32,000 nt of DNA from an uncultured Erysipelotrichaceae bacterium. Lineage in GTDB: Bacteria; Bacillota_I; Bacilli_A; Erysipelotrichales; Erysipelotrichaceae. Below, in pieces: positions 9,839 through 23,230 of the stretch. Positions within the stretch are counted from its first letter, which is position 1. Every line of letters begins with the position of its first letter. The position numbers were made by a program, and so were the translations under genes. The stretch covers positions 1,110,001 through 1,142,000 of the forward strand of contig OW818653.1 of NCBI GenBank assembly GCA_942492995.1, given 5' to 3'. Below the pieces are notes generated by a model. It made no database searches. It saw nothing but the letters and a program-made list of their open reading frames with translations, and was not told where the DNA came from.

Positions 9839-11521
9839 ATGAAAAGTAATCGTTTTTTTGCGCAGTTTTTTAATAGTAAGTATTTTGTACCACTAGTACT
9901 TTTACTAATGTTAATCCTTTACACATTCCCTTTTTATAATCGAGGAATTGTCTTTGGACATGATTTAATTTATCATCTATCTCGTGCAATGGGCGCATAT
10001 GAACAAATTAAATTAGGTATCTTCCCTGTAAAAGTATTAGGTGGATTCTATGGAGGTTATGGATATGCGGTTGGATTGTTCTATCCAACTGGTCTCTTGT
10101 ACATAATTTCGTTTCTATTATACTTTGGCGTTTCACTACTTATTTCATATAAACTTTGGATTGTATTAGTTACGTTCCTTACACTCATAAGTATGTATAT
10201 CTCGAGTTATACAATAGTCTCATCTAAACGATTTGCGCTAGTGTCTACATTTCTTTATGTATTCTCAATCTATCGAAATTATGCGGATTTGTTAGCACGT
10301 GCCGCACTTGGAGAATATATTGTATTTATGTTTCTACCAATTGTGTTTGCGAGCTTTTATGCGATTGTAAATAAGAAACAGAATCAATGGTTATGGTTGA
10401 GCATTGGAATGTTTGGAATACTTACAAGTCATACGATATCAACCATCTGGGTTGCCTTACTTCTAATAATCTATACTTTAATACATTTTAAAGATGTATA
10501 TCTAAATAAAAATGTTTTATTTACAATAATTAAAGCTGCTTTATTCACATTATTAATATCAATTTACTATTGGTTGCCGATGATAGAAATGATGGTGAGT
10601 GATACATATCGATACAATTATCCTTGGACTAACCTATCATTAAACGTTATAACTACATGGACAAAAATATTCTATATTAGTCCAAATCTAAATATATTCC
10701 CTTATGGAGTTGAGAGTTGGTTGATTGTAATACTCGTGATTGCGGTTATTACTAAATTCAAATCTTATTTACAACATGATTTTATGAAGTTTACGTTAAT
10801 CGTATTACTCTTATTATTTGTGTTTGTATCAAACATTATTCCAGTTAATTTATTAAGTATATTTGATTTTATGCAATTCCCATGGCGTGTATATTTATAT
10901 ATAACATTCTTTATTAGTATTGCCGTTGCGTATTTCATTGAATTATTAAGTCAAAAGAAGCAGATTATACTAATCGGTTCGTTAATTGTAATTACTTATG
11001 TTGGTTATATTAGTTCGATTAATGCATATTACATTGAGAAATATGATCGAATATACTTTACTTTCCCACGCTATCAGATTGAACATTTCTATGGAGAGTT
11101 TCTTCCAAAACTAGCGAATATGGACTATATTACCGCAAACATTGACCCATATTTTATTAACATTTCTAATCCAATTGATATAACGTATGAGAAGAAAATA
11201 ACTACATTCGATATTTACTTTAATCAATTAGACTATACCAATACAAAATTAGACATTCCATTATTGTATTACAAAGGATATTCAGCGTATTTAACAAGTG
11301 GAGATACAACTGTAATATTACCGATTCAGAAGAGCAATAATAGTTTAATGTCGATTAATATTGGGGAATATAAAGAAGGTGTAATCCATTTCTATTATCA
11401 AGGAACGCGCATTCAAAAAGTATCTGCACTTATTAGTATTGCGACGGGTGGATTATTTATTCTATATAGCTTATTGAAGAAGTTTAATTTATTACCAAAA
11501 CTAATTAAAAGAAAAGTGTAA
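9839..11521 (+). CDS. Polytopic GT-C-fold membrane glycosyltransferase, probable partner of the GtrB-like enzyme
   Basis: 560 aa with about 12 or more TM helices. An early loop motif GHDLIYHLSRAMG resembles the acidic first-loop motif of GT-C enzymes. The C-terminal soluble domain ends in a final TM helix. The gene lies 27 nt downstream of the GtrB-like gene. Confidence 0.6.
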   Translation: MKSNRFFAQFFNSKYFVPLVLLLMLILYTFPFYNRGIVFGHDLIYHLSRAMGAYEQIKLGIFPVKVLGGFYGGYGYAVGLFYPTGLLYIISFLLYFGVSLLISYKLWIVLVTFLTLISMYISSYTIVSSKRFALVSTFLYVFSIYRNYADLLARAALGEYIVFMFLPIVFASFYAIVNKKQNQWLWLSIGMFGILTSHTISTIWVALLLIIYTLIHFKDVYLNKNVLFTIIKAALFTLLISIYYWLPMIEMMVSDTYRYNYPWTNLSLNVITTWTKIFYISPNLNIFPYGVESWLIVILVIAVITKFKSYLQHDFMKFTLIVLLLLFVFVSNIIPVNLLSIFDFMQFPWRVYLYITFFISIAVAYFIELLSQKKQIILIGSLIVITYVGYISSINAYYIEKYDRIYFTFPRYQIEHFYGEFLPKLANMDYITANIDPYFINISNPIDITYEKKITTFDIYFNQLDYTNTKLDIPLLYYKGYSAYLTSGDTTVILPIQKSNNSLMSINIGEYKEGVIHFYYQGTRIQKVSALISIATGGLFILYSLLKKFNLLPKLIKRKV

Positions 11522-11536
11522 TTTTTACACTTTTTT
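11512..11536. terminator. Weak AT-rich bidirectional hairpin terminator overlapping two convergent stop codons
   Basis: aaaagtgta (11512-11520) pairs with tacactttt (11526-11534) around the loop atttt, with T/A runs on both sides. The stem has only two G:C pairs. Confidence 0.4.
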
Positions 11537-13010
11537 AAACTCTATTTTTAATTATCTTATTCTTAAACATTATTAGTATCGTCCAAACATCATTGAATTC
11601 TTTTTTTATGAATAAATATGAAAGTACTACATAGATTGCAAATCCAGTAAGTACTTGTAATCCAAGTAATGAGACTGAACCAAGATTTAATAACGAAACA
11701 GCTAATACGCCAGCCCCCATCGCAAATGATACGAGAGTTATTGGACTAATATCTTTAATCTGATCAATGTATCCATATCCAACAAACTCTTTCGAATAAT
11801 GTACATTAATTAGATATCCAATCTGTGCATTAAAGAACAATACCCATAATAATTCAATAATCGAAACACCATACCACAACGCTATTGAGATTGTTGTAAA
11901 TGCGACTATTTTCTTGAAAATCTCTAATCTTAAATACAGATCCGTTCGTCCAATGACTGTTAAGATATTTAGATTCACTTTATGTAGTGGAATCATTAAC
12001 CCATTAATTGCGAGAATTTGCATAATTGGTATCATACCCAACCATTGTTCATTAAATACAACTTTGACGATAGATTCAGATGTTGCGGCTAAACCAATCA
12101 AGATTGGATAGATAATAAAGATCGATAATTTTAAGATTCTTCGACTTGTCTCTAACATTGATTCTTTTTGGTTTTGAAGTTTACTTAATACAGGAAATGA
12201 AACTTTTTGAATCGCATCCGTCAATGTTTGCGCAGCCCCATCACGAATCTTAAGTGCATTACTATAATACCCAAGTGCTGAGACAGAGAACAAAGCGCCC
12301 ATAATCAAATTGAATATATTCTCATAAACTGTATGGATTAAACCAGATAACATTAATTTCCAAGAATATACAATCGCCTCATTTAAGAATTGACGATCGA
12401 TTTTACCTTTTAAATCTAAATGATAGATTTGCGTTAGGAGAATTGTTTGAATTAATTGAAATGAAACATTGTAAATTACTAAACTCCATACCCCAAAATT
12501 AAACAAACTTACTGTAACTGCGATAATACCCGATACAATTGCCGCAACTAACATACTCATTGTTTGACCACGGAATTGTAGATCACGCGTCAACATTGCC
12601 TTATGTACAGATCCATACGCATTAAAGATAATTGCGGATGAACTAACCACAAGTAACATTTGTGTAGATGGTTCATTTAAATAATCTGAAATCCAAGGTG
12701 AACCTAACACAAAGATTGTCACAATTATAAACGCAAAAATCATATTTGCGACAAACAATGAAAACGCATCATTTTCTTCCAACGTTTGTTTACGAATTAG
12801 AAATAATGTTAATCCATTTTCGATTAGATAATTCGCAACACTCACAAAAGCCATCACAAGCGCTACTAAACCAAATGCTTCTGGCCAGAGTAATCGAGCT
12901 AATATGATTTGTGTTAATATTCGTATTATTTGAAACGCAAAAGAACCACCAGAACTCCACATCATCCCATTGATTGCTTTGCTTTTTATGTTTATATTTG
13001 TTTCACTCAT
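11535..13010 (-). CDS. wzx: Wzx-type polysaccharide flippase (MOP/PST superfamily)
   Basis: 491 aa with about 12-14 TM helices. The N-terminus KSKAINGMMWSSGGSFAFQIIRILTQIILARLLWPEAFGLVALVMAF is the classic Polysacc_synt/RfbX-type signature. Confidence 0.8.
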   Translation of the reverse strand: MSETNINIKSKAINGMMWSSGGSFAFQIIRILTQIILARLLWPEAFGLVALVMAFVSVANYLIENGLTLFLIRKQTLEENDAFSLFVANMIFAFIIVTIFVLGSPWISDYLNEPSTQMLLVVSSSAIIFNAYGSVHKAMLTRDLQFRGQTMSMLVAAIVSGIIAVTVSLFNFGVWSLVIYNVSFQLIQTILLTQIYHLDLKGKIDRQFLNEAIVYSWKLMLSGLIHTVYENIFNLIMGALFSVSALGYYSNALKIRDGAAQTLTDAIQKVSFPVLSKLQNQKESMLETSRRILKLSIFIIYPILIGLAATSESIVKVVFNEQWLGMIPIMQILAINGLMIPLHKVNLNILTVIGRTDLYLRLEIFKKIVAFTTISIALWYGVSIIELLWVLFFNAQIGYLINVHYSKEFVGYGYIDQIKDISPITLVSFAMGAGVLAVSLLNLGSVSLLGLQVLTGFAIYVVLSYLFIKKEFNDVWTILIMFKNKIIKNRV

Positions 13011-13095: not shown

Positions 13096-14673
13096 TTAAT
13101 TTGGTTCATACACATAGAAATAATCAAATTCAACTCTATCTAACTGATATGACTCTAGTTTAATAATAAAATCTGTATTCGACTTATTCACAATATAATA
13201 GGCATTACGATCAATTATTTCAGGCATGCCAAAATTATACTGTTTGTATCCATTTTCATATTTTCCTAAATTATAATCAAACGGTGATATTTGAGCACTA
13301 AGTAAAAAGTAGATATGGCCTTGGTAATTACTATCAATATTACTTTCTGTATATACAAGTTTATTTTCAGTGTTATTTACTTCGACGTATTCTATCTCTT
13401 CAGTAAATAGATTTGAGAATAAGGTTTGAGGATAAATATCATATTTGTATTCAAAATAGTAATACTTCGCAAACCCAATAAAGTTCATAATATATAAGAA
13501 TATTAATAGAATATGTAATGATTTAATAACCCATTGTGATTTAACATAATGTTTTATAAGTGTTTCAGATGCGTATACACCAATAACAAGTAATACCAAA
13601 ATTGAATAGAATATACCATTCATTTTATTCGTATTGAGTTGTTCCTCAAGCATAATTCCCATAACGAACACTGAAAACGCAAAGAACCAGATTACTACAA
13701 TCGGTGAATAACATCTCGATTTAATACTTCTAAATAGTTCTATCAATCCATAAAATATACCAATTAATACAAATGGGATTGATATTCTATACATCGTATA
13801 AAATTGACTAAACGTATTATATGTAAGTTGATCATACATAAATACACTTCTCGTAATAAGTTTAAAATTCTCAATTATTTTAGAGAACGTAAATCCTGAA
13901 CCTCTGAAATTGGTTAATTTAGGGAATGTAATGCCAAAGATAAGCAAACTATTCATATTGAGTGAATTTACTATAACCATTAGAATTAATGGAAGTGCTA
14001 ATAATACGAGTGGAATAACAAAGTATAAAACATATTTATATTGGATTGATTTTGTCCAAATCATATAAATAAGAATTAATAAAAGAAATATAGGCATTAC
14101 AACATAACTTAGTGCATAGGTATATAAAATTAATCCTGAGAAAAGACCAGCGATGATATAGTAATTCTTACTCTTCTCACTTATCATTTTATGCACAAAA
14201 TATAGTACAATCGATGACATACCCATCATCAAATTACAGTCCAATCCAAATCGAGATTGCATAATAAAATATGGAAGTACTGTAAATAGGAATGAAAACA
14301 AGATTCCATAATATTTTGAATTAAGTATTTCTGTAACAGTTTCATAACCAACAAAGAATGTAAGAGTTGATAGTATAATTCCTGGCAATCGAATTGAATA
14401 AATAGATAATCCAGATAATTTAATAAGAATCATAGACATATAGGCATATAACGCACTTTGCCCAGCCCCAAAATTAATCAAATAGACAGGATATGAATTC
14501 AAATAACGATCAACTCCAAAATTAGCTAAAGAAAAAGCATCATACGCCATTCCAACTTCATCTACATGCATTCCAAATGGAACTTCATTTAGATTAAACA
14601 ATCGAGTAATTAAAAAGCCAATAAACAATGTACACATTATTAAAGTCATATTCGATTTTATTAATTTTTTCAT
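13096..14673 (-). CDS. GT39/ArnT/PMT-like GT-C membrane glycosyltransferase
   Basis: 525 aa and polytopic. The first extracytoplasmic loop FGMHVDEVGMAYDAFSLANFGVDRY carries the D-E motif typical of the ArnT/PMT_2 family. GGGGA RBS upstream. Confidence 0.7.
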   Translation of the reverse strand: MKKLIKSNMTLIMCTLFIGFLITRLFNLNEVPFGMHVDEVGMAYDAFSLANFGVDRYLNSYPVYLINFGAGQSALYAYMSMILIKLSGLSIYSIRLPGIILSTLTFFVGYETVTEILNSKYYGILFSFLFTVLPYFIMQSRFGLDCNLMMGMSSIVLYFVHKMISEKSKNYYIIAGLFSGLILYTYALSYVVMPIFLLLILIYMIWTKSIQYKYVLYFVIPLVLLALPLILMVIVNSLNMNSLLIFGITFPKLTNFRGSGFTFSKIIENFKLITRSVFMYDQLTYNTFSQFYTMYRISIPFVLIGIFYGLIELFRSIKSRCYSPIVVIWFFAFSVFVMGIMLEEQLNTNKMNGIFYSILVLLVIGVYASETLIKHYVKSQWVIKSLHILLIFLYIMNFIGFAKYYYFEYKYDIYPQTLFSNLFTEEIEYVEVNNTENKLVYTESNIDSNYQGHIYFLLSAQISPFDYNLGKYENGYKQYNFGMPEIIDRNAYYIVNKSNTDFIIKLESYQLDRVEFDYFYVYEPN

Positions 14674-14799: not shown

Positions 14800-15897
14800 T
14801 TATTTAAGAATTTCTTTTAGTATATTTGTAATTAAACAAATTGATTCATAATCTAACTCGCCATACATCGGTAAACAAATTACTTGATTGGAAATAGTTC
14901 TAGATAGTGGCAAATCAGCTTGATAGATATCTCTATAACAAGCATAATCCGTAACTAATGGATAAAAATATTTCTTCGCATTTATTCCTTTTTCTTTTAA
15001 CGTATTAAAAACTTCATCTCGTGAGATTGTTTTATGATTAATTAGAATTGGAAAATATGAAAAGTTATACTGCGTATTTTGATGATAGATTGGTAATGTG
15101 ATTGTATCAATCTCGTTTAACAACGTTATATATGCATTCGCATTATTACAACGATCCGAAATCTCTTTTTCCAAGAGTGGTAAATTACTTAAGCCCATCG
15201 CAGCTTGGAATTCATTCATTTTTAAATTTGAGCCAATATATGTTATATCTTCAGATGTTTCCATCCCGTAATACTTTATTAATTCTAATTTTTTAGTTAA
15301 TGCACTATCACGATAGGTAAGTAATCCACCTTCAATCGTATTAAATACCTTCGTCGCATTCATACTAAACATCGACACATCCCCAAAATTACCAATCCCA
15401 ATATTATTGTGCTTAACTCCAAATACATGGGCCGCATCATATATAAGTTTCAAATTGTATTTGTGTGCAAGTTTCTCAAACACTTCCACATCACATACAT
15501 TGCCTAAGATATGAACTGGCATTATCGCAACTGTTTTATCCGTTATCTTCTTTTCAACTTCTACTGGATCTAATGTAAAATCATCTTCTTTTATATCCGC
15601 GAATACAGGCGTACAACCTTGTCGTACAATCGCATGGGTTGTGGAAGGAAATGTAAACGCAGTCGTGATTATTTCTCCTTTTAATTGATACGCTTCTAAA
15701 ATAGCTTCAAGTGCTAAATGTCCATTCACAAATAAAGACGCATTTTCAACTTCAAGAAGCTCTTTAAGTTTAGTCTCTAATTGTTCATGTTTAGAACCTT
15801 TACTCGTTAATTGATGTGTATCCCAAATCGATTCTATCTCTTTTACATAATCTTCAAACTTCGGTAATAAAGACTTTGTGACATTGATTTTTTTCAT
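14800..15897 (-). CDS. DegT/DnrJ/EryC1/StrS-family PLP-dependent sugar aminotransferase
   Basis: The track ORF extends to 15915. The ATG at 15897 (MKKINVTKSLLPKFEDY) follows GGAGA at the right distance. It shows the family pattern ...FVNGHLALEAIL...TFPSTTHAI...DAAHVFG...SMFSMNATKVFNTIEGG, with the Schiff-base lysine in NATK. Confidence 0.85.
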   Translation of the reverse strand: MKKINVTKSLLPKFEDYVKEIESIWDTHQLTSKGSKHEQLETKLKELLEVENASLFVNGHLALEAILEAYQLKGEIITTAFTFPSTTHAIVRQGCTPVFADIKEDDFTLDPVEVEKKITDKTVAIMPVHILGNVCDVEVFEKLAHKYNLKLIYDAAHVFGVKHNNIGIGNFGDVSMFSMNATKVFNTIEGGLLTYRDSALTKKLELIKYYGMETSEDITYIGSNLKMNEFQAAMGLSNLPLLEKEISDRCNNANAYITLLNEIDTITLPIYHQNTQYNFSYFPILINHKTISRDEVFNTLKEKGINAKKYFYPLVTDYACYRDIYQADLPLSRTISNQVICLPMYGELDYESICLITNILKEILK

Positions 15898-16873: not shown

Positions 16874-17710
16874 TTATTTTTGATTTAAATTTAATAATAC
16901 TCTTAATTCTGAAGAACTCATCATTGTATGTTCATTAACATCGATTAATCGGTGAATTCGCTTAATTAAATCGATATTACTCGCTAAAACAGTGCGATTA
17001 TCATCGTACCAGATATTATCTTCTAATCCAATTCTTACACCATATCCTAATGATATTGCACATTGATTTGAGGTGAACTGTGAATTTCCAATACCACCAA
17101 TTGAGAAGATTGCGTTCTTTGGAAGTTCATTAATTAATGTAGCAAGATGTAATAGATTAAGTTGAGCACCTGCTATATTTCCAAGAATTAAATTTACGTA
17201 AATAGGTGTTTCTATATTTAACTTTTTTATCAGATAATTCAAATAATTAATCATACCCAAATCGAATACTTCAAATTCAGGCATAATTCCATTTTTTAAC
17301 ATTGTATTGATTAAGTCCATAATCATTTCAGGTGAATTATGACTAACATCTTTAGAGAAGTTTATTGAACCTAAGGTTAAACTAGCCATATCTGGTTTCA
17401 GATCACCCGTTAATTGTAATACCTCTGAACGCGCTTCAAACGTATTAACAGATCTACCTGTTGTCGATACAACAATCACAATATCTTTATTGTATGATCG
17501 AATACCACGAATTATTTCTGCATAGATTTCTTTTTTATAGGTAGGTATGCCATCTTCATCTCGTGCATGTAAATGTACCATTGTAATACCTAAATCAATC
17601 GCATTCTTAACTTCTTGGACAATCTCTGAAACGCTGATTGGAACATGTGGCGTTGTCGATTTCATTGGCAACATCCCTGTAGGTGTAAAGTTTATGATAA
17701 TTTTAGACAT
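16874..17710 (-). CDS. BKACE (beta-keto acid cleavage enzyme, former DUF849) family protein
   Basis: The track ORF extends to 17755. The ATG at 17710 (MSKIIINFTPTGMLPMKSTTPHVP) follows AAGGGG. It shows ITMVHLHARDEDGIPT and RIGLEDNIWYD, motifs characteristic of the 3-keto-5-aminohexanoate cleavage enzyme family. Confidence 0.8.
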   Translation of the reverse strand: MSKIIINFTPTGMLPMKSTTPHVPISVSEIVQEVKNAIDLGITMVHLHARDEDGIPTYKKEIYAEIIRGIRSYNKDIVIVVSTTGRSVNTFEARSEVLQLTGDLKPDMASLTLGSINFSKDVSHNSPEMIMDLINTMLKNGIMPEFEVFDLGMINYLNYLIKKLNIETPIYVNLILGNIAGAQLNLLHLATLINELPKNAIFSIGGIGNSQFTSNQCAISLGYGVRIGLEDNIWYDDNRTVLASNIDLIKRIHRLIDVNEHTMMSSSELRVLLNLNQK

Positions 17711-17808
17711 ATAACCCCTTTTATGGCTAAATGAGCATTTTCTATAGTTTAACATTTTCTTTAATGCTTGTGTTTTGTAATGTATTATATATTTATTAGG
17801 AAACCTCC

Positions 17809-18825
17809 ATGAAAATTAATCTACTAATAACAAGTGTTGGAAGACGTAACTACATAGTTCAATTCTTTAAGGAATACATGCATGATGATGACACGATACA
17901 TGTATCAAATAGTAATATAACCAGTGCTTTTAATGAAGCACATTTTAGTGTTGTGACACCATTAATAAAAGATGAAACGTACATTGACTTTCTGGTAGAT
18001 TATTGTGTAAAAAATAGAATAAATGCGCTTTTATCACTTTTCGATTTAGATATCTACGTACTATCAAAACATAAGTCTAAATTTGATGCGATAAATGTTA
18101 CATTACTATTCTCTGACGAGAAGATTATTGAGATCTGCAATGATAAATGGATGACATATAAATTTCTAATTGACCATGGATTTAAAACTCCACTAACATA
18201 TCTTAATTATGATGAAGTTATACAATCACTCGATAAACAAATTATCAAATTTCCAATTATGATTAAACCACGATATGGAACTGGTTCAATTGGATTATAT
18301 GAAGCGAATGATCTTGAAGATTTAGTGTTTTATACAAAAAAAGCGCATCAATTAATTAAAAGAACATACATTAATGAATTTAATCCGATTGATTCACAAT
18401 TATTAATCTATCAAGAAAAAATAGTTGGGACTGAATACAATCTAGATGTGATTAATGACCTTAACTGTGACTATCAAACTACAATCGTTAAACAAAAACT
18501 TGAGATACGAGCTGGAGAAACGGATAAGGCGATTATTATAGATAATGATAAATTAAAAAATGTTGGATTAAATCTATCTCAACATTTAAAACATCGATTA
18601 AATTGTGATTGTGACCTCATTCTAGATATAAACAATACTGCATATATTATTGATTTAAATCCACGTTTTGGAGGTGGTTATCCATTTAGTCATTTAGCAG
18701 GTGTTAACTTACCACATGCAATTCTTTCTTGGTTAAAGAATGAAATAATCGATTATGAATGGAAAGTAGTTAAACCAAATTTAGTTATACAAAAAGAAAT
18801 TATAATGAAGATATTAAAAGATTAA
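17809..18825 (+). CDS. ATP-grasp ligase (stand-alone), opposite orientation to the surrounding operon
   Basis: MKINLLITSVGRRNYIVQFFKE..., then FPIMIKPRYGTGSIGL, and a C-terminal IIDLNPRFGGGYPFSHLAGVNLP. This is the typical pre-ATP-grasp plus ATP-grasp organisation seen in glycan loci. Confidence 0.8.
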   Translation: MKINLLITSVGRRNYIVQFFKEYMHDDDTIHVSNSNITSAFNEAHFSVVTPLIKDETYIDFLVDYCVKNRINALLSLFDLDIYVLSKHKSKFDAINVTLLFSDEKIIEICNDKWMTYKFLIDHGFKTPLTYLNYDEVIQSLDKQIIKFPIMIKPRYGTGSIGLYEANDLEDLVFYTKKAHQLIKRTYINEFNPIDSQLLIYQEKIVGTEYNLDVINDLNCDYQTTIVKQKLEIRAGETDKAIIIDNDKLKNVGLNLSQHLKHRLNCDCDLILDINNTAYIIDLNPRFGGGYPFSHLAGVNLPHAILSWLKNEIIDYEWKVVKPNLVIQKEIIMKILKD

Positions 18826-19472
18826 TTTTTAAAACGAATTCCTATTGAATGGCTTGGATTTCCTACATTCTTTGTGTTTTCTTCCACATCTCTTATCACA
18901 ACAGAACCTGCCCCAATAAGGGCTTTTTGTTTGATGTGTATGTTATTAGAAATCGTTGAATTTAAACCGATATAAACTTGATCATCAATTGTACATACTC
19001 CACCAATGGTTGTGGAAGCAGTAATAATGACATGACTACCCATTTTAAGTTCATGTCCAATATACACTTTTTGACGAATAATATTATTATCTTGAAGGAC
19101 AGTTTCTGGTCCGATATAACACAATTCAAAGATTATATTGTTTACACCCATTTTTACATCATTAAACACAACACTGCGTTTACTTATATAGTTTCTAAGA
19201 TTATAACCTTTGGCTTTTGCCCTATAAAAAAGCGTTGAATCTTGATTCAAAGAAGCATCTAAAACAACCATATCAAATTCACTCGGAGGATAAATCATTT
19301 CAACATCTTCAAAGGCAATTTGTGGTAGATCACAAAACTTACCCGATTCATCTAAATAATCACGATCAACACAAAATGCGACAATCACAAAATCATCATG
19401 ATCAATCGCGTCAAAATACAACATCTTAGATAATAATCGTCTACCATAGACTACGATACCTTTAGATTTCAT
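18822..19472 (-). CDS. NeuD/PglD-family sugar N/O-acyltransferase (left-handed beta-helix)
   Basis: The N-terminal Rossmann-like part is MKSKGIVVYGRRLLSKMLYFDAI..VIVAFCVD. The C-terminal hexapeptide repeats are IGHELKMGSHVIITASTTIGGVCTIDDQVYIGLNSTISNNIHIKQKALIGAGSVVIRDV. GGAGA RBS present. The start overlaps the upstream gene by 11 nt. Confidence 0.8.
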   Translation of the reverse strand: MKSKGIVVYGRRLLSKMLYFDAIDHDDFVIVAFCVDRDYLDESGKFCDLPQIAFEDVEMIYPPSEFDMVVLDASLNQDSTLFYRAKAKGYNLRNYISKRSVVFNDVKMGVNNIIFELCYIGPETVLQDNNIIRQKVYIGHELKMGSHVIITASTTIGGVCTIDDQVYIGLNSTISNNIHIKQKALIGAGSVVIRDVEENTKNVGNPSHSIGIRFKN

Positions 19473-21507
19473 TGTCGTTCTCCATGTAATATTTTGTTAG
19501 TGAATCAATTGTTTGGATTAATGTAACCTTTGGCTCCCAATTAAGATCATTATATATTTTTGATGAGTCTAGTCGATATCTTAAATTAATCGATTCACTT
19601 ACAATTTCAATTCTAGATTTCGAATGACCTTTTATACGATTTACAGAATCGATTGCGAGATTTGCGAAATCGATTATTGAGTATGATTCTTTTGAGCTCA
19701 AGTTATAACATTCTTCCCATTTATCGGGTTGAGCAATAAGTTTAGATAATGCGTCACTAACATCTTCAATATCGATTAAATCAAACACTTGTTCACCACC
19801 AACAATCTTAATTGGCTCATTACGTAGAGCTTGTTTAATAAACTTTGATAAGACAAACACATCAACCAATCCTTTTGAATCTCCTAATACTGTTCCAAGT
19901 CGAATTGATGTAGTATTTAAATCTGGATTTGCGTATTTAATCGTCTTTAGTAATAATTCTGTCGAAACTTTAGCTTGGCCATAAAATGTCTTAGGTTTCA
20001 ATAAAGATGATTCACTCCAGATTGGATCTGCATAATTTCCATATACACTTCGTGATGATAAATTAATTATGTTTTTAACTTTAATTAGTGATGCCTTAGC
20101 GAATAATTCTGATGTGAACTCCAAACTACGTGTAATTTGTTCATCACCTAGATGAGGACGTGCAAACCCTAGATGGATTAAACAATCAATCTCCTTCCAA
20201 GGTATTGAATTGGTTGATAAATCGTTTAGCGTATACATATTTTGAATCGTATTATTGAATACTTTTCTCGCATTATCCATATTCGTTGTGAGTATATCAA
20301 CCATATAACCCTGATTTAATAGCTTATTTACTAAGTTATAACCAATAAAACCCGTAGAACCTGTTACACAAATACGCTTAATCGTATTCAACTTATTCTT
20401 CTCCCAGAATTTATTCTGATTGAAAACGATACAATCATTGTTAGAAATATAGTAATCCGTCAATGATCGATAAACTAACCCATTAGACTGTGTAGGATAT
20501 CTACTATCCACTCCAATATCATACTTATAATAAGATAATATCAGATTTCGAACTTCATCAAATCCTAGCCAAGCACGTGCAGATGTAGATCCACTCATAC
20601 GTCCATTCATTTCTATCCCATAAAATGTATTGTTCGCTTCTCTTAGCTGTAAATTAAACATTCCACGCCAACCTTCTTTTACGATAGCTGTTGTGTATTC
20701 TTTAGCGATTCTACTTAACTCTTCATTTATAAATGGTTCTGCCTTTTCACATCGTCCTAATACCATTAAACTCTTTGATGTGAATATCTCATCAAATTGA
20801 CCGTCTTCATGAATTAAGACTTGTGCTGCATATTGAGCATCATCAGGTAGATGAAAGAAGAATGGAATACCACATTGAATATCTGATTCAAAGCGATTGA
20901 GTTTAATCATATTATCGTTATTAAAACCAATCAATTTTTGTAAGATAATATTCTCTATTTTAGAATTAAGTAAGGCCAAAAGATGATTATCATGCATTAA
21001 TACACGTATTCCAAGCGATCCAAATCCATCTCTTGGTTTCGCAATAATTGGATACTCAACGTGATTTGCCCATTCAAATACATCACCATTTTCCCCATTG
21101 AGAATATATGATTGTGCAAAGGGTAAATGATATTTTTTCGCAAATGACATACTTAATGCTTTATCATTCATAATCTCAATCGAAGATATACTTCCTTTAG
21201 AAATCATATTTTGAAACTCTGGATGCTTATTAAAAAACTTAGCTAGTATCATCACGTCTTCATCACGCCCTGGTAAAACTAAATTAGGTACTTCTTTCAT
21301 TAAAACATTAATAAAAAATGATTCAAACTCAGTCGAATTACTATTAACTGATTTATACAATCGATCACATCTAAAAACGCGAGGATTTTCCGAAATAGTA
21401 TTTATACCCACTATTTCAACTTTCTCTCTTCGACCTTCCAGAGCATCTAGTACATTCTGACCGAGTAAACTTCCAACACTTAGTATTAGTATTTTAAATT
21501 TATTCAT
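19462..21507 (-). CDS. Fusion protein: N-terminal ATP-grasp ligase plus C-terminal extended-SDR NAD(P)-dependent epimerase/dehydratase/reductase
   Basis: The track ORF extends to 21564. The ATG at 21507 (MNKFKILILSVGSLLGQN) sits 1 nt after the upstream stop. The ATP-grasp part shows YPIIAKPRDGFGSLGI and GIEMNGRMSGSTS. The SDR part shows ICVTGSTGFIGYNLVNKLL, SSRSVYG and the catalytic YGQAK. Confidence 0.8.
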   Translation of the reverse strand: MNKFKILILSVGSLLGQNVLDALEGRREKVEIVGINTISENPRVFRCDRLYKSVNSNSTEFESFFINVLMKEVPNLVLPGRDEDVMILAKFFNKHPEFQNMISKGSISSIEIMNDKALSMSFAKKYHLPFAQSYILNGENGDVFEWANHVEYPIIAKPRDGFGSLGIRVLMHDNHLLALLNSKIENIILQKLIGFNNDNMIKLNRFESDIQCGIPFFFHLPDDAQYAAQVLIHEDGQFDEIFTSKSLMVLGRCEKAEPFINEELSRIAKEYTTAIVKEGWRGMFNLQLREANNTFYGIEMNGRMSGSTSARAWLGFDEVRNLILSYYKYDIGVDSRYPTQSNGLVYRSLTDYYISNNDCIVFNQNKFWEKNKLNTIKRICVTGSTGFIGYNLVNKLLNQGYMVDILTTNMDNARKVFNNTIQNMYTLNDLSTNSIPWKEIDCLIHLGFARPHLGDEQITRSLEFTSELFAKASLIKVKNIINLSSRSVYGNYADPIWSESSLLKPKTFYGQAKVSTELLLKTIKYANPDLNTTSIRLGTVLGDSKGLVDVFVLSKFIKQALRNEPIKIVGGEQVFDLIDIEDVSDALSKLIAQPDKWEECYNLSSKESYSIIDFANLAIDSVNRIKGHSKSRIEIVSESINLRYRLDSSKIYNDLNWEPKVTLIQTIDSLTKYYMENDNEI

Positions 21508-21508
21508 A

Positions 21509-23230
21509 TTATTGTTCTTCTTTCCAAAATAGTTTAAACGTTGGGGATGTGGATGAGAAAACACCCTCGCTTATCGATACTTCATTATCAATATTTATAA
21601 TCACTTCAATTAAATATGGCTCTATTGTATTTTGAGCTATATTTATTGCGTTTTCCAATTCTTCTAGTGTCCGTACACACATCGCTTCTATATTGAAACT
21701 TTTCGCATAGTGTGTCCAAGATACATTCGGTAAACGTGATATCTGATTCCGTGTTAGTTCTTCTTCTTTATTCAATCTTAATTCGATTCTTCCATACGAA
21801 CCATTATTTATTACGATAAACTTAGTATTACGATGATACCTTTGTGCTACAGCTAATTCATTCCCATGCATTAACATACATCCATCCCCAGTTAATATCC
21901 ATGTCGCAATCGAGTTATCGACAAATGAAGCGCCTATACCAGCCGCAATTGCCCACCCCATTGGCGCATTCTTTGCGGCAGTGAAGAATGTATTATAGTT
22001 AATCACATCCCAATATTTACTTCCATAGATACGATGATCTCCAGAATCCAAGAAAAAGTTAGATGTTTTATTAATCAATCCATTCATTAAAAACAAACAA
22101 TTTTCCATACTTAATTTAGTACTCTTATCATGTACTTCATATTTAATTGGCTTATAAACATATTTAATAAACCAAGATTTCTCATTATCCGAAATCACAT
22201 TCAACTTCTGTAATGAATCAATGAAATGATTGATTGAACTTTGTATGTGGATAATAGGATGTTCCAAAATACCATCCCTTTGCGCTCGATTGCTAATAGA
22301 GTAAATATTCCTATACTTTTTGAATAGTTTATTACTCCATGCCATCGTATTTCGCTCATTTAATTCTGTCCCAAAAAAGTAAATATCTTCAATTTGTTCA
22401 TTTGAGACCAATTGAATCGCAGATTCATTTCCTGCATATCCATATACTCCACAGAATAATTCACTTGGAATAAGTGCTTGTGTATTCTTTGCGCCTATTG
22501 TACACACCATAGGAATTGCATGTTTTATACAAAAATTGATTATAGAATTTATATCATCGAGATTATTTAAATCTTCACCTAATATAAATATTGCTTTATG
22601 AAAGTTCATTTTATAACGTTCTAAATTTAAATCTTTTTTATCATAGTGTTTAACAAGTTTATTTATCACTAAATTTTCTAGAATTTGTGTCTTAAAGACA
22701 TCACAATGAACATTCAGATGTAAAGGATAATTATTATAATTTCTAAATTCTGAATGGAACGTTTCTAATGTATAAAATAATTCATTAGAATCTGTTGGGA
22801 TACATTGATTATTAATAAGCAATTTCATTATTTCAGAGGATTTACAACCATCTTGGTTTGATGTTTGAAATCCAAGTTTATCTTTAATTGATAGTGGCGC
22901 ATCGCCTGTTAAATATATAACAGAACTATGATCAATCATTGCGGTAGATACTGCAGTTATAAGATTTGTCAGACCTGGTCCATTGATTGTCGCAACTAAG
23001 GATATTTGTTTAGATTTCCTAAAGTATCCATCTGCCATAAAACCAGCCCCTTCTTCATGTGCTGAGACGACTAATTTGAAACGTTTATCCTTCGCGACAG
23101 CTAAAATAAAATGTTCTATGTGAGCTCCAGGTATTGTAAATATCGTACGAATCCCTAGGTCATAGAACAAATTTAGACAATAGTGTGTAAAATCATAGGT
23201 TAAACTTGATACATTTTCTGAATTATACAC
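21509..23230 (-). CDS. Thiamine-diphosphate-dependent enzyme of the acetolactate-synthase/YerE-like class
   Basis: 573 aa with a GTG start at 23230, preceded by GGAGA at a 6-nt spacing. The N-terminal Pyr domain reads VSAHEEGAGFMADGY...INGPGLTNLITAVSTA. The C-terminal ThDP motif is GDG, then 24 residues, then NN (LTGDGCMLMHGNELAVAQRYHRNTKFIVINNGSYG). Confidence 0.8.
   Translation of the reverse strand: MYNSENVSSLTYDFTHYCLNLFYDLGIRTIFTIPGAHIEHFILAVAKDKRFKLVVSAHEEGAGFMADGYFRKSKQISLVATINGPGLTNLITAVSTAMIDHSSVIYLTGDAPLSIKDKLGFQTSNQDGCKSSEIMKLLINNQCIPTDSNELFYTLETFHSEFRNYNNYPLHLNVHCDVFKTQILENLVINKLVKHYDKKDLNLERYKMNFHKAIFILGEDLNNLDDINSIINFCIKHAIPMVCTIGAKNTQALIPSELFCGVYGYAGNESAIQLVSNEQIEDIYFFGTELNERNTMAWSNKLFKKYRNIYSISNRAQRDGILEHPIIHIQSSINHFIDSLQKLNVISDNEKSWFIKYVYKPIKYEVHDKSTKLSMENCLFLMNGLINKTSNFFLDSGDHRIYGSKYWDVINYNTFFTAAKNAPMGWAIAAGIGASFVDNSIATWILTGDGCMLMHGNELAVAQRYHRNTKFIVINNGSYGRIELRLNKEEELTRNQISRLPNVSWTHYAKSFNIEAMCVRTLEELENAINIAQNTIEPYLIEVIINIDNEVSISEGVFSSTSPTFKLFWKEEQ

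Follow-up and report, generated by a model that had tools for sequence, protein, structure and literature searches.

Our analysis of a 32,000-nucleotide stretch of an uncultured Erysipelotrichaceae genome (hereafter, the window) indicates that a BKACE (beta-keto acid cleavage enzyme) is probably the acyl-donor synthase of a two-gene cassette, in which it would supply a carboxylate-ended acyl-CoA for the N-acylation of an amino sugar made by a DegT aminotransferase. In the window, the real partner of this enzyme is an acyltransferase encoded at 18822-19472, which the original prediction had missed. Two results are new here, namely the switching of the clade between unrelated acyltransferase partners and a paired-arginine signature in the two enzymes. 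Although the enzyme family has been studied intensively, the results point to a biosynthetic role for one of its branches, which is large and widespread, and to a route to acyl donors for surface glycans that has not been described. Genes of this clade are currently annotated as lysine-fermentation enzymes and can thus inflate butyrate-pathway predictions.

The BKACE gene and its glycan locus

The locus comprises the following features:

11535..13010, minus strand: Wzx flippase of the glycan locus (by profile)
13096..14673, minus strand: PMT-type (GT-C) membrane glycosyltransferase (by profile)
14800..15897, minus strand: DegT/DesI/VioA-type sugar aminotransferase, 365 aa
15906..16862, minus strand: GT2 glycosyltransferase, with orthologues (45-47%) following BKACE in two genomes of the genus, G012 and G020
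16874..17710, minus strand: BKACE/DUF849 enzyme of the acyltransferase-linked clade, 278 aa (PF05853 profile, active-site residues)
17809..18825, plus strand: PylC-like ATP-grasp ligase of PRK12767 type, inverted between acyltransferase and BKACE
18822..19472, minus strand: PglD/PerB/VioB-type hexapeptide N-acyltransferase, 216 aa (catalytic H140; R133 for the Asn of PglD)
19462..21507, minus strand: fusion of an ATP-grasp domain with an NAD-dependent epimerase/reductase (SDR)
21509..23230, minus strand: ThDP-dependent enzyme, acetolactate-synthase-like

Both motifs from which the family had originally been predicted, HLHARDEDG and GLEDN, lie in the open reading frame 16874-17710, and the assignment to BKACE/DUF849 is borne out. 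The PF05853 profile matches over the full length (E=1.3e-74; 251 bits against a gathering score of 24.8). The structures closest to an AlphaFold model of the protein (pLDDT 90.8) are DUF849 enzymes (3NO5, Z 37.1, rmsd 2.0; Kce 2Y7E, Z 36.0), while TIM barrels outside DUF849 reach only Z<17. Profile and structures thus speak against membership of another TIM-barrel family, the outcome that the prediction had named as its refutation. The metal ligands H46, H48 and E230 are intact, as are S82, S115, N117, E147, R226 and D231, and the Ser/Thr/Asn carboxylate site is present; with this complete set the enzyme does not fall into the inactive group G7. Its bit scores lie under every NCBIfam equivalog cut-off, and by its sequence it is a family member outside the Kce, carnitine and 3-oxoadipate equivalog groups. 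The characterised family had been described as serving lysine fermentation and carnitine catabolism. Both roles hold, but the range is wider, including beta-ketoadipate/glutarate (PMC4922564 S1 Table), deoxyribonate activity, and a biosynthetic DUF849 enzyme, BsfD (10.64898/2026.01.15.699783). The BKACE groups, including those of the NetSyn context analysis, are described as catabolic or without an assigned role (10.1101/2023.02.15.528638).

Translation starts at the ATG at 17710, with a ribosome site (AAAGGGG) 5 nt upstream; a longer version starting from the ATG at 17755 was rejected, as it has no such site. The gap of 11 nt to the GT2 gene (start 16862) and the 98 nt to the divergent ATP-grasp gene (start 17809) agree with the original prediction. 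BKACE is a single-copy gene in the 2.0 Mb, 33.6% GC host genome, and comparison with an 84%-identical relative gives 103 synonymous and 44 non-synonymous codon changes, indicating purifying selection. A promoter scan at the locus stayed at chance level (50 vs 59.9 expected).

By profile, the neighbours of BKACE are GT2, DegT, PMT-type GT and Wzx genes. Transcription on the minus strand runs in the order ThDP enzyme, ATP-grasp/SDR fusion, acyltransferase, (inverted ATP-grasp), BKACE, GT2, DegT, GT-C and Wzx, so that an inserted gene stands between the acyltransferase and BKACE. The best model for DegT is DesI, a dTDP-4-keto-6-deoxyglucose aminotransferase, and from its family the protein is predicted to make the NDP-amino sugar acceptor, with the GT2 enzyme likely transferring the acylated sugar. 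In the pathway that we propose, the metal centre of BKACE would condense acetyl-CoA with an anionic beta-keto acid, and cleavage would yield acetoacetate and a carboxylate-ended acyl-CoA. This is the chemistry of the family; the reaction, its direction and its substrate in this enzyme are those that we infer. The acyltransferase would pass this acyl moiety on to the NDP-amino-dideoxyhexose that DegT makes, at its amino group. From their family functions, the GT2 enzyme would add the N-acylated sugar to an envelope glycan and Wzx would export it.

The order of the locus is kept in close relatives at 84-97% identity. Only two of 20 other genomes of the genus (G012 and G020) carry BKACE, and a close orthologue of the acyltransferase is restricted to these same two. 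Both have the order acyltransferase>BKACE>GT2>DegT, in which stop codons overlap with start codons, and in G012 the four-gene block directly adjoins the same Lrp/aminotransferase pair, with no equivalent of the fusion 19462..21507 upstream of the acyltransferase. This order suggests a core of four genes, to which the ATP-grasp and ThDP genes were added in the window's lineage. The emphasis that had been laid on the ATP-grasp ligase did not hold up: such a gene lies within 4 kb at only 5 of 105 clade loci and is absent in G012 and G020, and it was therefore rejected as the functional partner of BKACE. The sole other linked PylC-like copy is 29% identical to that of the window. The ThDP enzyme, found among the loci scanned only in the window's own lineage, was rejected as a substrate supplier on that ground, and also as an oxalyl-CoA decarboxylase, no such model being among its best 25 NCBIfam matches. 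Some relatives carry DegT and GT2 with different tailoring genes and without BKACE, and in G008 and G013 (L381:9466-10578, L382:8124-9215) an orphan DegT (74-75%) is left near Lrp, the rest of the cassette being gone. Judging by these relatives, BKACE and the acyltransferase act together as a cassette that can be exchanged. A related BKACE at L052:10001-10837 has a 1-bp deletion near codon 201 with the other cassette genes intact, which is either an assembly error or a pseudogene.

Several further genes of the region were noted. The ThDP enzyme and the ATP-grasp/SDR fusion (19462-23230), a combination confined to the window's lineage in this survey, could presumably make a branched-chain sugar, as with YerE/YerF, and a fusion 28% identical to that of the window lies near DegT and GT2 in G014 (L383:4556-6490). 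At 9839-11521 (plus strand), after an ArnC/GtrB-like GT2, a 560-aa membrane protein is encoded that has no match in Pfam or NCBIfam and is probably a GT-C transferase that has gone unrecognised. A second DegT, with apparent GNAT-like and FdtA-like genes, lies shortly outside the window on its left (L384:12686-14679, G000) and would form a separate amino-sugar route of the same glycan region.

Coupling of the clade to acyltransferases

The survey covered about 290 loci, which came from genomes in GTDB, metagenomes, IMG/VR and plasmids and also from two phylum draws blind to context. BKACE belongs to a clade of 208 distinct sequences (39-100% identity, and at most 35% to anything outside). The clade is supported by SH-aLRT 99.7/aBayes 1 in an IQ-TREE tree of a 61-sequence set and, with its 208 sequences, by 0.945 in FastTree; its grouping with pca-type enzymes is weak (SH-aLRT 71). 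Its members come from Bacillota, Bacteroidota, Planctomycetota, Nitrospirota, one genome of Woesearchaeota and contigs of viruses.

An acyltransferase, either hexapeptide or GNAT, lies within 1.3 kb at 132 of the 143 clade loci with adequate flanks vs 0 of 45 loci outside. Recruitment of the loci was by similarity, and as many of them are related to one another (phage, Flavobacteriaceae), the counts do not represent independent events. At 121 of the 143 the distance is within 200 bp. The difference persists on dereplication at 70% (44/50 clade vs 0/15 outside) and at 60% (18/22 vs 0/9). As clade loci were the source of the neighbour HMMs, the controls were examined independently of these: 12 annotated plasmid loci showed only catabolic genes (pca, carnitine and others), and a Pfam search of the principal clusters of Kce neighbours likewise returned only catabolic, lysine-fermentation-like genes.

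Within 1.3 kb, hexapeptide protein and GNAT exclude each other as partners, and Fitch parsimony counts 14 switches between them. GNAT-BKACE and BKACE-GNAT fusions occur in Bacteroidota, and single fusions join BKACE to a GT4 and to a sulfotransferase. What argues most strongly for a shared metabolite is the swap to an unrelated fold with the same need for an acyl-CoA, and it is quite likely that BKACE is coupled to the acyltransferase as its acyl donor. Loci of the hexapeptide type are glycan-linked in 15 of 19 cellular and 35 of 45 viral cases, as against 1 of 32 cellular loci of the GNAT type. The survey of BKACE neighbours proposed with the original prediction thus finds DegT and GT genes adjoining clade BKACEs when the partner is of the hexapeptide type. 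The idea that an unusual acyl-CoA acylates an amino sugar gains from the clade-wide coupling, although the particular acyl groups suggested do not (see below). Direct action of BKACE on a keto-sugar acid, also considered originally, has become less likely, as a third of the clade stands beside a GNAT without glycan genes.

In Flavobacteriaceae and Bacteroidales (L002, L004, L011, L015, L307 and ~30 others), BKACE and GNAT form a stand-alone two-gene operon with variable flanks. Virus contigs (L147-L214; IMG/VR, up to 335 kb) carry the order BKACE > hexapeptide acyltransferase > DegT-like, as at L160:7001-9100. Here, the DegT-like protein is half-size (~200-210 aa) with its Asp and Lys motifs kept, and the cassettes lie among glycosyltransferases and PhoH. 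An acyltransferase is present at 69 of 79 viral BKACE loci, and neither GenBank phages nor PHROGs yielded a match to the viral BKACEs. Salmonella plasmid pRSE21 (L215:6486-12853) and a Streptomyces camelliae plasmid (L216:1735-9688) carry clade BKACEs that lack an acyltransferase. Their neighbours are GTP cyclohydrolase II, gamma-glutamyltransferase, a SAM methyltransferase and an extra riboflavin synthase, with a RibD-like gene in one and RosB in the other, possibly a lumazine/flavin-type antimetabolite cluster; as a speculation, an oxalyl unit would fit 6,7-dioxo-lumazine at these two loci.

Chemistry like that of BsfD, in which acetyl-CoA would be joined to an anionic keto compound, maybe an acyl on an NDP-sugar, without any new acyl-CoA, is unlikely. 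BsfD is a biosynthetic DUF849 enzyme of divergent chemistry, with Phe at the position of Kce Tyr145 and an Arg for the anion; BKACE also has Phe149 and Arg86, and a few clade members, those in ribA/ribD clusters, are without an acyltransferase neighbour. However, Phe149 occurs in 32 of 32 sampled Kce-clade sequences and in pca-type enzymes and was rejected as a mark of such chemistry. Furthermore, the best explanation for a tight coupling to two CoA-dependent transferases that are unrelated to each other is an acyl-CoA common to both.

Paired arginines and the predicted acyl group

BKACE has Leu at residue 14, where Kce has Glu14. Gly85-Arg86 is invariant in the alignment of all 208 clade members. 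Arg86 is also found in 100% of pca-type enzymes, the corresponding residue being Ala for Kce and, for the carnitine enzymes, Thr. Anionic beta-ketoadipate and beta-ketoglutarate were assigned to group G4 with a panel from which oxaloacetate was absent (PMC4922564). In BsfD, the Arg that holds the phosphonate sits in the loop following the strand that Arg86 also follows (10.64898/2026.01.15.699783).

The acyltransferase of the window has an N-terminal domain and a hexapeptide helix (TIGR03570, 136 bits, under the cut-off of 161), and its H140 aligns with the catalytic His of PglD/PerB. Before this His, the Asn-Thr motif of PglD/PerB/VioB is replaced by Arg133-Gln134, R133 aligning with the Asn, which in PglD-type enzymes we take to line the acyl site. 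An Arg 6-7 residues before the catalytic His occurs in 62 of 67 BKACE-linked acyltransferases vs 1 of 37 unlinked ones at 70% dereplication, and in 33/37 vs 1/29 at 50%. The raw counts are 101/108 vs 2/38, and the two unlinked exceptions lie 1.34 kb from a BKACE. This Arg occupies one of two adjacent positions and is found in two or more separate lineages; the window's acyltransferase is without the N-terminal Arg that most relatives keep. Arg on both consecutive enzymes suggests an acyl group that ends in a carboxylate, and from these sequence features an anionic group seems rather probable, although the Arg of the acyltransferase could bind the acceptor instead. Arg86 of BKACE and the Arg before the His of the acyltransferase thus offer a sequence signature predicting an anionic N-acyl group.

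It is improbable that the partner is an ordinary acetyltransferase, with BKACE working in reverse (acetoacetate and malonyl- or succinyl-CoA giving acetyl-CoA) or removing a by-product. Group G4 enzymes are active in reverse (PMC4922564), and the host can make acetoacetate (thiolase/AtoDA) and malonyl-CoA. However, ordinary PglD/NeuD acetyltransferases need no BKACE (0 of 30 sampled loci had one nearby), and the linked acyltransferases show a systematic residue change near the acyl site. Supply of a neutral or amino acyl group by BKACE is similarly doubtful. Groups such as 3-hydroxybutyryl, 3-aminobutyryl and glyceryl are common N-acyl substituents on bacterial amino sugars, and the hydrophobic Leu14 resembles enzymes for non-charged substrates. 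But the Glu14 that an amino substrate requires is missing, Arg86 is invariant, and no lysine-fermentation or other substrate-supplying genes lie near BKACE; the originally suggested 3-hydroxybutyryl, acetoacetyl and aminobutyryl groups therefore fit the pocket poorly. That BKACE is a catabolic passenger in a variable glycan locus is very improbable: cassettes turn over often at this site, with the BKACE-less DegT relatives and the frameshifted metagenome copy described above, but clade-wide adjacency, overlapping start and stop codons, fusions, carriage beside glycan genes on virus contigs and purifying selection all argue against it.

For the preferred reading, an anionic acyl-CoA made by BKACE, the leading candidate donor reaction, held tentatively, is the conversion of oxaloacetate to oxalyl-CoA; malonyl or succinyl groups from 3-oxoglutarate or 3-oxoadipate are less likely. 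No substrate-supplying gene was seen to be conserved beside BKACE across the surveyed loci, and the host has ACC and already makes malonyl-CoA, which together favour a common substrate and a product that is otherwise unavailable. A succinyl-CoA ligase was not found in the host genome, and no source for 3-oxoadipate or 3-oxoglutarate is evident there. Oxaloacetate is the common anionic beta-keto acid, and BKACE chemistry on it would give oxalyl-CoA; a structural relative, ObcA (below), acts on precisely this pair of oxaloacetate and acetyl-CoA. The host genome showed no clear source of oxaloacetate: a pyruvate-carboxylase domain was not found in it, and there is only a weak PEPCK-like match. 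A 569-aa protein with weak PEPCK_ATP and DUF4914 matches (L385:1025-2731, G000 368 kb) is possibly a divergent PEP carboxykinase. The host also has a thiolase/AtoDA operon, which could recycle the acetoacetate released by BKACE. Extended to the clade, a stand-alone oxalyl-CoA synthase, paired in bacteria and large phages with hexapeptide or GNAT transferases that are Arg-adapted, for N-oxalyl amino sugars and other oxalylated products, is a possible but tentative reading. In the literature searched, which left out most subscription journals, we found neither N-oxalyl nor N-malonyl sugars, nor any BKACE in glycan loci or tied to acyltransferases. An N-oxalyl surface modification, if true, would thus be one of which we found no report.

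Relation to known systems

Among characterised relatives, the group G4 3-oxoadipate:acetyl-CoA acetyltransferase (NF053568) is the best match in structure (Z ~37), with the same catalytic set and the same Arg after strand 3 (R86), and the DUF849 structures 3NO5, 3CHV and 3FA5 share the STGGR motif. BKACE differs from it in identity (~34%), in Ser123 for Tyr, Asn178 and Met153, in its NF053568 score (192 bits, under 350) and in context, which is biosynthetic, with glycan rather than pca genes, and aromatic-catabolic for G4. Kce (G2) shares the fold, the His-His-Glu metal site, Arg226/Asp231 and the Glu143 equivalent. BKACE differs in having Leu for Glu14 and Arg for Ala86, scores 229 bits against the 382 of NF052387, falls outside the Kce clade, and at its locus shows none of the kdd/kal/kamA lysine-fermentation context of Kce. 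Neither the carnitine dehydrogenase context nor the pocket residues of the carnitine enzymes (G5) are present.

ObcA/Obc1 of Burkholderia oxalate biosynthesis (4NNA-C, 5IKY) is a related barrel (Z ~30, profile E 6e-11) that combines oxaloacetate with acetyl-CoA as a step towards oxalate and acetoacetate. However, it is 22% identical, has ~200 extra residues (542 aa against the 278 of BKACE) and ends in free oxalate. BsfD of flavophos biosynthesis (9ZSC) is likewise a biosynthetic DUF849 enzyme with an Arg for its anionic substrate, but its product is a free diketone, not an acyl-CoA; it is distant (E 3e-21) and has no described acyltransferase partner.

In gene content, the locus resembles VioA/VioB, PglE/PglD and PerA/PerB, which combine a DegT aminotransferase, a hexapeptide N-acyltransferase and a glycosyltransferase, as here. 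These systems, and AntD-type acylation, use acetyl-CoA or donors made by ligases or hydratases. Unlike the Vio, Pgl and Per systems, the present locus has BKACE as its proposed donor enzyme and a transferase with Arg in place of Asn/Thr.
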